64,000 nucleotides of DNA, from IMG/VR virus record IMGVR_UViG_3300006735_000018, positions 28,963 to 92,962 of that record; one strand, written 5' to 3'. Within the stretch, counting starts at the first letter, position 1, and each line of letters starts with the position of its first letter. The notes below the pieces were generated by a model that saw nothing but the letters and a program-made list of their open reading frames with translations, had not been told where the DNA came from and made no database searches. A program made the position numbers and the translations under genes. Below, in pieces: positions 59,931 to 63,997 of this stretch. The DNA comes from a virus.

Positions 59931-60326
59931 ATGAAACTTTACAATGTCATATCAAACCTTATACTTGAGCAAGCATCTCAATCAGAAATTATAGATGCTA
60001 TAAAAAATAAACATGTCTGTGAATTAGAGTATGAGGATGATATGAGTATAGGTCCAGGTAAACGAGTAATACAACCTGTAGCTTTTGGTGAATCTTTAAG
60101 AAATAATAAAGTTATTAGAGCTTATCAAACATCAGGACCATCATTAAAAGTAAATGAAGAGGGTATTCCTCTACCAGATTGGAGATTATTTAGATTAGAT
60201 AGGATAAGTAATTTTAAACCAATTAAAGGTGAGGATTCTGTTTTTGAGACTTTTACTGAACCACCTATGTATAATCCGTTTGGTGATAAATCTATGAACA
60301 GACTTTTAGTTAATTCAAAATTTTAA
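59931..60326 (+). CDS. Stand-alone WYL-domain protein
   Basis: DAIKNKHVCELEY...GKRVIQPVAFG...IRAYQ...WRLFRLDRI. Confidence 0.78.
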   Translation: MKLYNVISNLILEQASQSEIIDAIKNKHVCELEYEDDMSIGPGKRVIQPVAFGESLRNNKVIRAYQTSGPSLKVNEEGIPLPDWRLFRLDRISNFKPIKGEDSVFETFTEPPMYNPFGDKSMNRLLVNSKF

Positions 60327-62224: not shown

Positions 62225-62404
62225 ATGGCAGTAGAAATTAATATTATGGAAAATGGACCAATTTTGGTCAAAGGTGAAACCACAGTAAAAAAAGGTGGTA
62301 AAGAAGTAACAGTAAGTGAAAATTACGCGTTGTGTAGATGTGGCAAATCTAAAAATCAACCAATGTGTGATGGAGCACATAAAGAAACTAATTTTAAAGG
62401 ATAA
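62225..62404 (+). CDS. CDGSH iron-sulfur (2Fe-2S) domain protein (59 aa, missed by ORF track)
   Basis: MAVEINIMENGPILVKG...YALCRCGKSKNQPMCDGAHKETNFKG*; matches C-x-C-x2-S-x3-P-x-C-D-G-[SAT]-H exactly. Confidence 0.9.
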   Translation: MAVEINIMENGPILVKGETTVKKGGKEVTVSENYALCRCGKSKNQPMCDGAHKETNFKG

Positions 62405-62671: not shown

Positions 62672-62962
62672 ATGAATTTCTTTAAAAACATGTTAAGTAG
62701 TGAAGGTAAAGTCTCTAGTAAGAGATTTGTTACTTTCGTATGTCTTCTATTTATGTTAATAGGATACACAGCTAATCTATTCTGGGATTTTACTATCGAG
62801 GAAAATTTATTTCAATCACTACAGTGGATTGTAATGGCTGGTCTTGGTTTTACAGCTGCAGAGAATTTTTCACCTAAAGGTGAGGAGGTTGTAGAAGAAG
62901 AACCAGAACCAACTAGAACAACTGTGACTCACGAATATTATGATGATGAAGAAGACTACTAA
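62672..62962 (+). CDS. Two-TM membrane protein (possible holin-like)
   Basis: SSKRF followed by two hydrophobic helices and an acidic C-terminal tail; TATTTAT upstream at 62649-62655. Confidence 0.55.
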   Translation: MNFFKNMLSSEGKVSSKRFVTFVCLLFMLIGYTANLFWDFTIEENLFQSLQWIVMAGLGFTAAENFSPKGEEVVEEEPEPTRTTVTHEYYDDEEDY

Positions 62963-62967
62963 AAAAC

Positions 62968-62995
62968 AAAAACCACTCGAAAGAGTGGTTTTTTT
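62968..62995. terminator. Bidirectional terminator with a GAAA tetraloop
   Basis: AAAAACCACTC-GAAA-GAGTGGTTTTT between convergent transcripts. Confidence 0.85.
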
Positions 62996-63013: not shown

Positions 63014-63079
63014 TTAACAGTCACAACACGTACAATCACAACTTGTTTCACATTTACATTTTTCACAATTACATTTCAT
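63014..63079 (-). CDS. Metallothionein-like peptide (21 aa, 9 Cys; missed by ORF track)
   Basis: ATG at 63079: MKCNCEKCKCETSCDCTCCDC*. It has an A-rich leader and lies between the upstream stop (63093) and the terminator. Confidence 0.72.
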   Translation of the reverse strand: MKCNCEKCKCETSCDCTCCDC

Positions 63080-63092
63080 AATATTTACTTTT

Positions 63093-63359
63093 TTAATTTA
63101 CTGAATCACAATAGTATCTAACTAAAGTCATAACATCCCCGTGACATCTTGCACAACTTCTATTACCTACCATTTTTTCTTCTTTATTAATTTCTGGACA
63201 TAATTTATCTAACTCACCTAAAAATTCATTATCTGTCATTGATTGTTTAATTTTACCAGCAATATTTCCTGGAATCATATTTGGCCCGGTAAGTATCTGT
63301 TCTTTTACTATTTTTTCTATAGTATTTATCAATTCTGATTCTTTTAATTTAATATTCAC
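63093..63359 (-). CDS. Small protein with a leader and a CxxCH motif
   Basis: MNIKLKESELINTIEKIVKEQ...LC...SCARCH...YC. Confidence 0.65.
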   Translation of the reverse strand: MNIKLKESELINTIEKIVKEQILTGPNMIPGNIAGKIKQSMTDNEFLGELDKLCPEINKEEKMVGNRSCARCHGDVMTLVRYYCDSVN

Positions 63360-63997
63360 CTTAAATATTTTTTTAAATTTTGTTTTAGTATGTTTTCAAA
63401 TATACCCATACCGTCAGCTGTATAATCTGGGTCTGCTGATTGATTCGATATGTTTACATTATATGTAGTTCCAGTAGTATCGTCTTCATCTAACTCATCT
63501 TCCCCCAAATCATACTTATCAGTTGGTTTTGCGATACCTAAACCCATACCTTGATTATTACCGAACCCTAACATCATTTGTTCTTTTACAATTTTTTCTA
63601 TTGTATCTATTAATACTGACTCCCTAACTTGGATTATGTCCGTTTCTTCTTCCCACCAATCAACTGGAGAACCCTTTCTATATGAAAAGTCATAATCATC
63701 ATCTTCCCACCTATCAACTGGGGAACTCTTTCTATCACCTGACCACTCTAAACACCTATTAACACCCGGTTTGTAACCATGGTTTTGATTTCCGTTGTGT
63801 CTTATACAACGATTATTACCACCGTCATATATACTATCTTCTGGTTCAGTATCTAAACATTCATTATATGACATACATCCAGGTGTACCACTATGTGAAC
63901 CGTCTCTTGCCATTCTACAAGCAGTTCTACCACTTCTTCCTCTATTCCAACACTCAAACCTTTCATTAATTATACTTTCACTTATTGACTTATCCAT
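63356..63997 (-). CDS. Hypothetical protein with Cys mini-domains (possibly 5'-truncated by the window edge)
   Basis: The frame is open to the window end. It contains a C..C..C..C module and an internal IIQVRESVLIDTIEKIVKEQ. Confidence 0.6.
   Translation of the reverse strand: MDKSISESIINERFECWNRGRSGRTACRMARDGSHSGTPGCMSYNECLDTEPEDSIYDGGNNRCIRHNGNQNHGYKPGVNRCLEWSGDRKSSPVDRWEDDDYDFSYRKGSPVDWWEEETDIIQVRESVLIDTIEKIVKEQMMLGFGNNQGMGLGIAKPTDKYDLGEDELDEDDTTGTTYNVNISNQSADPDYTADGMGIFENILKQNLKKYLR

Follow-up and report, generated by a model that had tools for sequence, protein, structure and literature searches.

At positions 63014 to 63079 on the minus strand of the window (the whole 64-kb stretch of viral DNA that we analyzed) lies a micro-gene for a peptide of just 21 amino acids, nine of which are cysteine. 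It is almost certainly a real protein-coding gene and is presumably translated. Comparison with related loci shows that it is conserved at the protein level and that it is carried by phages and also by cells. As to its role, we put the probability that the peptide works as a minimal metallothionein, holding a metal-thiolate cluster, at roughly 55%.

The micro-gene and the contig that carries it

The micro-gene consists of an ATG (63079-63077), 20 more codons, and a TAA (63016-63014), and it encodes MKCNCEKCKCETSCDCTCCDC. Nine of the 21 residues are cysteine (43%), laid out as CxCxxCxCxxxCxCxCCxC, and phenylalanine, tryptophan, tyrosine, and histidine are absent. The original prediction had described the ORF in these terms (nine cysteines in CxC and CC arrays, no aromatic residues), and the sequence agrees. 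From stop to stop, the frame has only six extra codons upstream, and the ATG is the sole start codon. The prediction also remarked that all nine cysteines are encoded by TGT. This is true but uninformative, as it reflects codon bias: the long ORFs of the contig contain 431 TGT codons versus 12 TGC codons.

On its upstream side, the micro-gene follows two other genes on the minus strand. A spacer of 13 nt (63080-63092), which is A/T-rich and lacks a Shine-Dalgarno (SD) motif, separates its ATG from the stop codon of an 88-amino-acid ORF (63093-63359). The product of this ORF has an N-terminal motif of the ESELI..IEK.VKE type and a C terminus with cysteine and histidine. The 88-amino-acid ORF is overlapped by a 213-amino-acid gene of the same transcription unit (63356-63997). 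Neither of these two upstream genes had a match in Pfam or PHROG. The short spacer without an SD motif implies cotranscription with the upstream genes, and all three genes appear to form one unit.

On its downstream side, a bidirectional intrinsic terminator (62968-62993, both strands) begins 20 nt past the stop codon. It has an 11-bp stem, a 4-nt loop, and T runs on both sides, and it scores as a terminator on either strand. The stem shows compensatory changes across syntenic loci, that is, it is conserved. Next comes a convergent gene for a 96-amino-acid membrane protein (62672-62962, plus strand). Because the terminator is followed by a convergent gene, the transcription unit ends with the micro-gene, as had been proposed. 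The convergent unit also includes, directly after a glycosyltransferase gene, a gene for a 59-amino-acid phage protein with a CDGSH iron-sulfur domain (62225-62404, plus strand; PF09360, E = 5e-17). A 131-amino-acid protein encoded at 59931-60326 (plus strand) has a weak match to the WYL domain (E = 7e-5).

The window is the final 64 kb of a 92,962-bp virus record from IMG/VR, with a CheckV completeness of 29%. The contig codes for a tail sheath, a baseplate wedge, a DNA polymerase, a helicase, and a ribonucleotide reductase, which bears out the claim that the micro-gene is phage encoded. The DNA polymerase is only about 25% identical to that of any phage in GenBank, and when we compared the region and the peptide to GenBank phages using BLAST, there was no match. 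Given the sheath, baseplate, polymerase, and reductase genes, the low completeness, and the distant polymerase, the source is a fragment of an uncultured, probably jumbo, myovirus.

Beside the baseplate genes, two adjacent ORFs of about 1,000 amino acids are 6.1 to 6.3% cysteine, compared to an average of 1.5% for the long ORFs of the contig. They lie on the minus strand, at positions 1-996 of the window and in the piece of the contig upstream of it (L426:384-3371 and L426:3391-6459). Pfam had no family for these two ORFs or for two other cysteine-rich ORFs. One suggestion in the original prediction was that the peptide supplies cysteine-rich virion proteins with metal. This is speculation: many phage contexts of the family are unrelated to this one, bacterial chromosomes have the family too, and we therefore draw no link to these ORFs.

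Conservation of the nine cysteines

In 100 first-order Markov simulations of the 64-kb window, ORFs of 15 to 60 amino acids had at most 7 cysteines, versus 9 in the real micro-gene. We then turned to 80 related viral loci, which were fetched via the convergent 96-amino-acid gene and so were chosen blind to the micro-gene. In nine of the 80, the interval between the terminator and the upstream gene likewise contains an ORF of 20 to 21 codons. These nine relatives retain every one of the nine cysteines, while eight other positions vary. In the remaining loci, other genes occupy the spot; the micro-gene is therefore an accessory gene.

We also ran two DNA patterns against IMG/VR. The C-terminal pattern (the last five cysteines and the stop codon) had 70 matches, and about 55 of these are free-standing ORFs of 19 to 22 amino acids with an ATG and an N-terminal CxCxxCxC. 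The N-terminal pattern (the ATG and the first four cysteines) matched at least 126 loci. Among the N-terminal matches listed, 115 of 126 are exactly 21 amino acids long and end with CxCxCCxC and a stop codon, a half that lies outside the pattern. A search of related phage contigs for conserved cysteine positions had been proposed as a check on the original prediction; such positions are found both in the syntenic relatives and among the pattern matches, and the prediction of a genuine small gene that gene callers miss holds up. The C-terminal pattern also caught Actinomycetota proteins of about 350 to 470 amino acids that end in long cysteine-rich tails (...PWS..K.R..., then CDC/CCxC arrays ending in CCDC; loci L162, L168, L170, L178, L195, L203, and L209, among others). 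These seem to be unrelated to the micro-gene family.

We defined members of the family by M-x0-2-CxCxxCxC-x2-3-CxCxCCxC, followed by a stop within 0 to 2 codons. The ORF in the window fits this definition exactly. After de-duplication, the family has at least 126 distinct loci: 115 from IMG/VR, including the window, and 11 contigs from bacterial genomes. These loci give 99 distinct peptides of 19 to 23 amino acids, and 79 of the peptides have exactly 21. The consensus is MKC[ND]CK[VIT]C[NKG]CG[TK]SC[DEN]C[TNS]CC[DN]C. Across the 99 peptides, cysteine accounts for 42.8% of residues, followed by asparagine, lysine, aspartate, serine, threonine, glycine, and glutamate; there is a single histidine. 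Aromatic residues (F, W, or Y) are absent from all 99, including the 11 bacterial ones. One further bacterial copy, outside the 99, has a tyrosine at residue 2.

The invariance of the nine cysteines is partly by construction: the definition of a member demanded nine, and the use of two half-patterns offsets this only partly. Each DNA pattern fixes part of the motif, so divergent members would be missed. We did see two kinds of variants. In 2 loci (L250 and L289), histidine replaces the sixth cysteine, and a 36-amino-acid variant with 13 cysteines has a duplicated CxCxxCxC module (L090:795-905, minus strand).

The pattern of nucleotide changes also points to selection on a protein. In 52 distinct coding sequences, the cysteine codons have no changes at positions 1 and 2, and 126 TGT/TGC changes at 468 third positions. 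Over all codons of these sequences, variation at position 3 is about 2.5 times that at positions 1 and 2. The positions of the start and the stop are fixed across the member loci. The in-register antisense frame is open in 123 of the 126 member loci, so we base the coding call not on openness but on two other features: start and stop positions that are fixed, and variation at the third base. If the loci were read antisense, the third-base variation would land on first codon positions.

The 15 nt before the ATG of the 126 member loci are 61% A and 31% T (92% A+T), and just 4 of the 126 have an SD-like motif. SD-poor initiation is known in Bacteroidota, and the A/T-rich, SD-poor starts of this family fit that style.

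Phage and chromosomal settings

Many uncultured marine phages carry the family, in heterogeneous contexts that include replication genes, candidate genes for internal proteins, and an FAD dehydrogenase. In the window's jumbo lineage, the gene directly upstream is always from one family with the N-terminal motif ESELI.LIEK.VKE; the family of the 213-amino-acid gene occupies this position in 12 member loci, including the window. In another set of phages, the micro-gene lies among T4-like replication genes, for a primase, a clamp loader, a Cas4-like exonuclease, and a SegE-type homing endonuclease. The primase of one carrier shares 62% identity with that of Flavobacterium phage vB_FspM_immuto, which is the nearest cultured relative of this carrier lineage and has no nine-cysteine ORF. 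In 42 loci, a gene for an FAD/NAD-binding dehydrogenase begins about 125 nt downstream of the micro-gene. Across all of these contexts, only the peptide itself is constant: the nine cysteines, the distances between them, and a stop codon immediately behind the last one.

Neighbors of the micro-gene share an N-terminal amphipathic motif, which is ESELI.LIEK.VKE in some and MKL.DIILE or MDNFDL.KYLAEG elsewhere (window 63093-63359 and 63356-63997, minus strand; loci L007, L010, L024, L059, L077, and L093, among others). We take this motif to resemble the capsid-targeting leaders of T4 internal proteins. Some of these neighboring proteins end in a segment that contains cysteine and histidine.

To separate the micro-gene from the FAD gene, we used a control set of 80 FAD-gene loci that were fetched blind to the peptide; 53 of these had enough upstream sequence. 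A hairpin element was present in 51 of the 53 loci and the nine-cysteine ORF in just 8, which assigns the element to the FAD gene. The site upstream has several alternative occupants, and the micro-gene is one of them. The same counts led us to reject two ideas, namely that the ORF is part of an attenuator and that the FAD protein is its disulfide-reductase partner, because the element tracks the FAD gene and not the ORF. For the FAD protein, the only family match was a generic Rossmann one; its identity to the "NAD(FAD)-utilizing dehydrogenases" of Campylobacter phages is about 25%, and a search of the PDB found no relative.

The element of the FAD gene is a candidate for a new cis-regulatory RNA or a promoter-terminator module. 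One part is a 5-bp hairpin whose 9-nt loop, ATTCATAGC, is invariant. There are 31 distinct versions of the stem, all fully paired, with several types of base pair at each position. An invariant CTGTGGC, 18 to 29 nt after this hairpin, marks the start of a terminator-like hairpin whose loop is TTTGG, and GTATATTA follows. CAUAGC of the first loop could pair with GCUGUG. We considered whether the sequence after the downstream hairpin might be a tRNA, but it is not, and the element did not match any family in Rfam. All of the loci with this element (L346 to L425, L085, L088, L104, L112, L116, and L124, among others) are outside the window's contig.

The family is also found in bacterial chromosomes. 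When we scanned prokaryotes with one genome for each species, true members of 20 to 23 amino acids were present in 11 contigs, all of them from marine Bacteroidota (Flavobacteriaceae, Cryomorphaceae, Cytophagales, Marinoscillum, and "Candidatus Marisimplicoccus"). The surroundings are plainly cellular in all 11 contigs; for instance, one copy is just upstream of tuf-nusG-rplKAJL-rpoB. In a sample of 401 Flavobacteriales genomes, only the seed genome and TGT/TGC microsatellites matched. Within the genus of "Ca. Marisimplicoccus," the nine-cysteine pattern was present in 22 of 34 species genomes (these are 0.6 to 1.4 Mb, and many are incomplete), and a reversed control pattern had 0 matches.

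We examined the chromosomal slot at 15 loci: 11 of the 12 that were fetched from the genus search, along with 4 contigs from the scan across species (the loci are among L427 to L438, L160, L175, L179, and L205, from genomes of about 1.2 Mb). The twelfth locus from the genus search lacks an ATG-started ORF. In all 15, a gene for a cation exchanger (Na_Ca_ex, or CaCA) is divergent from the micro-gene and starts a few hundred nucleotides from it. In 12 of the 15, the exchanger gene and the micro-gene are separated by an ORF of 119 amino acids. Judging from their sequences, we take an ORF beyond the exchanger gene to be glutamine-synthetase-like (7 of 15 loci) and an ORF downstream on the other strand to be pirin-like (14 of 15). 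The flanking proteins are 56 to 90% identical to those of the reference locus. A single syntenic slot with flanking proteins this diverged indicates that the chromosomal micro-gene has been vertically inherited, under long-term selection, within the genus. This genus-level syntenic conservation beside a CaCA gene is new here. Among the first 11 cellular contexts that we examined, no metal-resistance operon or metal-sensing repressor was beside the micro-gene, and the sole metal-related neighbor of the cellular copies that we examined is the divergent exchanger.

The cellular distribution, the kinship of one carrier lineage to a Flavobacterium phage, and the SD-less, A-rich starts together suggest that the host of the window's phage belongs to the Bacteroidota.

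Metal binding and other possible functions

Metallothioneins are small, cysteine-rich, aromatic-free proteins that are unstructured before they bind metal, and they form trinuclear or tetranuclear thiolate clusters (PMC4101491; PMC6337107). Every hallmark of metallothioneins that can be judged from a sequence is present in the peptide. Its molecular mass is low (21 amino acids, and 19 to 23 across the family); its cysteine content is high, in CxC, CC, and CxxC arrays (9 of 21 residues, and 42.8% over the 99 distinct peptides); and aromatic residues, which metallothioneins lack (PMC4101491), do not occur in those 99. High cysteine content and CxC arrays are suggestive of a metallothionein, but they are not specific.

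The prediction of a metallothionein-like peptide thus stands as far as these hallmarks go, but the peptide does not match the models of described metallothionein families. In particular, Pfam and NCBIfam gave no family at E ≤ 10 for the window's peptide, for two relatives, or for the 36-amino-acid variant. Such short and biased queries are hard for HMMER, so the lack of a match excludes membership by model and does not exclude a similar function. A phmmer search of the PDB with the peptide found nothing at E ≤ 10, and a search of one protein collection with a 40-amino-acid read-through form of the peptide yielded no candidate. Since no model or solved structure matches, homology to described metallothioneins is not supported. 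A weak lead comes from the ESM Atlas, where a neighbor of the 36-amino-acid variant is a Metallothio_5 cluster (score 0.81).

If the peptide is a metallothionein, its nine thiolates would enclose a small metal-thiolate cluster. A three-metal domain of the beta type contains nine cysteines, so the simplest structural reading would be either three divalent ions (Zn or Cd) in an M(II)3Cys9 cluster, as in beta-type domains, or else a Cu(I) cluster. The peptide would then buffer or hand on a trace metal in the infected cell. We infer metal binding, its stoichiometry, and its physiological role from the sequences and their distribution. Three observations fit metal binding, although they do not prove it: the variant with histidine for the sixth cysteine, as histidine is another metal ligand; the 36-amino-acid variant with its duplicated module, as modular growth occurs in metallothioneins; and the pairing with a divergent cation exchanger across a genus.

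We considered several other explanations for the peptide. First, it might be a cysteine-rich and possibly zinc-stabilized mini-effector that modulates a specific host or phage protein, for takeover or antidefense, instead of buffering metal. The phage copies do lie beside replication genes, in variable regions of small accessory genes and SegE-type homing endonucleases that are reminiscent of the hyperplastic regions of T4-like phages, and the neighboring genes often bear the N-terminal motif that has been read as a capsid-targeting tag. However, the same peptide is a stable and syntenic chromosomal gene across a bacterial genus, which is awkward for a phage-specific weapon. Also, the non-cysteine positions vary freely, which leaves little surface for specific recognition. 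We consider this explanation to be unlikely, though it is the best of the alternatives.

Second, the peptide might be a thiol or redox buffer, or a scavenger of electrophiles or reactive oxygen species, that acts via free thiols and disulfides instead of bound metal. A content of 43% cysteine would suit this role, and metallothioneins are also credited with roles in oxidative stress (PMC11237414). But bulk thiol chemistry does not require an exact spacing or number of cysteines, and the would-be partner reductase is not linked to the peptide: the FAD/NAD enzyme of the 42 loci comes with an upstream element of its own (51 of the 53 control loci) far more often than with the peptide (8 of the 53). 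This makes a thiol buffer improbable, about half as credible as an effector.

Third, the peptide might be the precursor of a RiPP (a ribosomally synthesized and posttranslationally modified peptide), as it is small and cysteine-rich, and phage RiPP genes have been reported (PMC11118758). It has no leader region, though: its first cysteine is at residue 2 to 4. Among the largest recurrent clusters of neighbors that we annotated, there was no radical-SAM, YcaO, or lanthipeptide-type enzyme, and no neighbor is constant across contexts. A RiPP precursor is therefore very improbable.

Fourth, an ORF that is rich in cysteine codons could be the leader peptide of a ribosome-mediated attenuator that senses the charging of Cys-tRNA and thereby controls a gene downstream. 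At 14 loci, the order of ORF, hairpin, terminator-like hairpin, and gene does look like an attenuator. In the window, in contrast, the terminator is followed by a convergent gene, and there is nothing downstream on the micro-gene's strand; the contexts also differ widely between loci. Furthermore, a leader would not need the conservation seen in the non-cysteine residues, in the length, and at the C-terminal CCxC-stop, and the hairpin element accompanies the FAD gene (51 of 53 loci), whereas the ORF is present at 8 of the 53. We give this idea hardly any weight.

Least likely of all is that there is no gene here, just a chance ORF in a TGT/ACA-rich stretch or an element that acts as DNA or RNA: the ORF is very short, lacks an SD motif, abuts a terminator, and has an open antisense frame, but simulations never gave nine cysteines, at least 126 distinct loci share a fixed ATG and stop with cysteine codons that vary only at the third base, and synteny is kept across a bacterial genus even though the flanking proteins are just 56 to 90% identical.

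Returning to the metallothionein reading, we can tentatively go further, although we consider this extended version somewhat less probable than not. The peptide may be the shortest gene-encoded metallothionein, with 20 to 21 residues and a single M(II)3Cys9 or Cu(I) cluster, which serves as a housekeeping buffer in flavobacteria and has been captured repeatedly by phages. Zinc, cadmium, cobalt, and copper are scarce in the ocean. If the extended version is correct, then streamlined marine flavobacteria keep the peptide as a housekeeping buffer for trace metals, and many ocean phages have captured the gene repeatedly for auxiliary control of Zn, Cu, or Cd during infection. This would be a previously unseen route from viruses to the cycling of trace metals in the sea, and it would offer a testable link between phage infection and the trace-metal economy of the ocean.

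If metal binding by itself is correct, then metallothioneins extend to phages, and to sizes below that of any described member. It would also mean that a class of genes in many viral contigs and one bacterial genus is missing from the libraries of families and structures that we searched. This absence is most likely due to the peptide's size, which is below the reporting limit of gene callers. Our literature searches turned up no phage- or virus-encoded metallothionein, no cysteine-rich phage micro-protein of this kind, and no report of this peptide. And should the metal reading fail, there would still be a peptide of 21 residues to explain, with nine fixed cysteines and long-term purifying selection in cells as well as viruses.

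If our inference holds, the peptide works like a one-cluster metallothionein, yet it fits no described family. Among known systems, the beta-type (three-metal) domains of animal metallothioneins resemble it in having CxC-rich arrays, nine cysteines, and no aromatic residues. They are about 30 residues long, whereas the core of the phage peptide is about 19 residues, with a different spacing of the cysteines and a CC pair near its end. The phage peptide is also free-standing, while the animal beta domain is one domain of a 60-residue protein. The origins differ as well (phages and Bacteroidota versus animals), and there is no detectable sequence homology between the two. Without metal, the animal domain has no fixed fold, and it holds a three-metal cluster (PMC4101491).

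The bacterial metallothioneins SmtA/BmtA (PF02069) and the mycobacterial MymT are, like the phage peptide, prokaryotic, small, and cysteine-rich, with CxC motifs, but their length is more than double. SmtA has a zinc-finger-like fold and histidine among its ligands. The peptide did not match the PF02069 model even at E ≤ 10. MymT has a mass of 4.9 kDa and binds 4 to 6 Cu(I) ions (PMC6337107).

A fungal type, the metallothionein of Neurospora crassa, has about 25 residues and 7 cysteines. Both it and the phage peptide are tiny, gene-encoded, and aromatic-free, with successive CxC units and a single cluster (which the phage peptide would have if it binds metal). The phage peptide differs in having nine cysteines instead of seven, in being shorter, and in its spacing. 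The fungal peptide is a Cu(I) metallothionein (Lerch 1980, as cited in PMC6337107).
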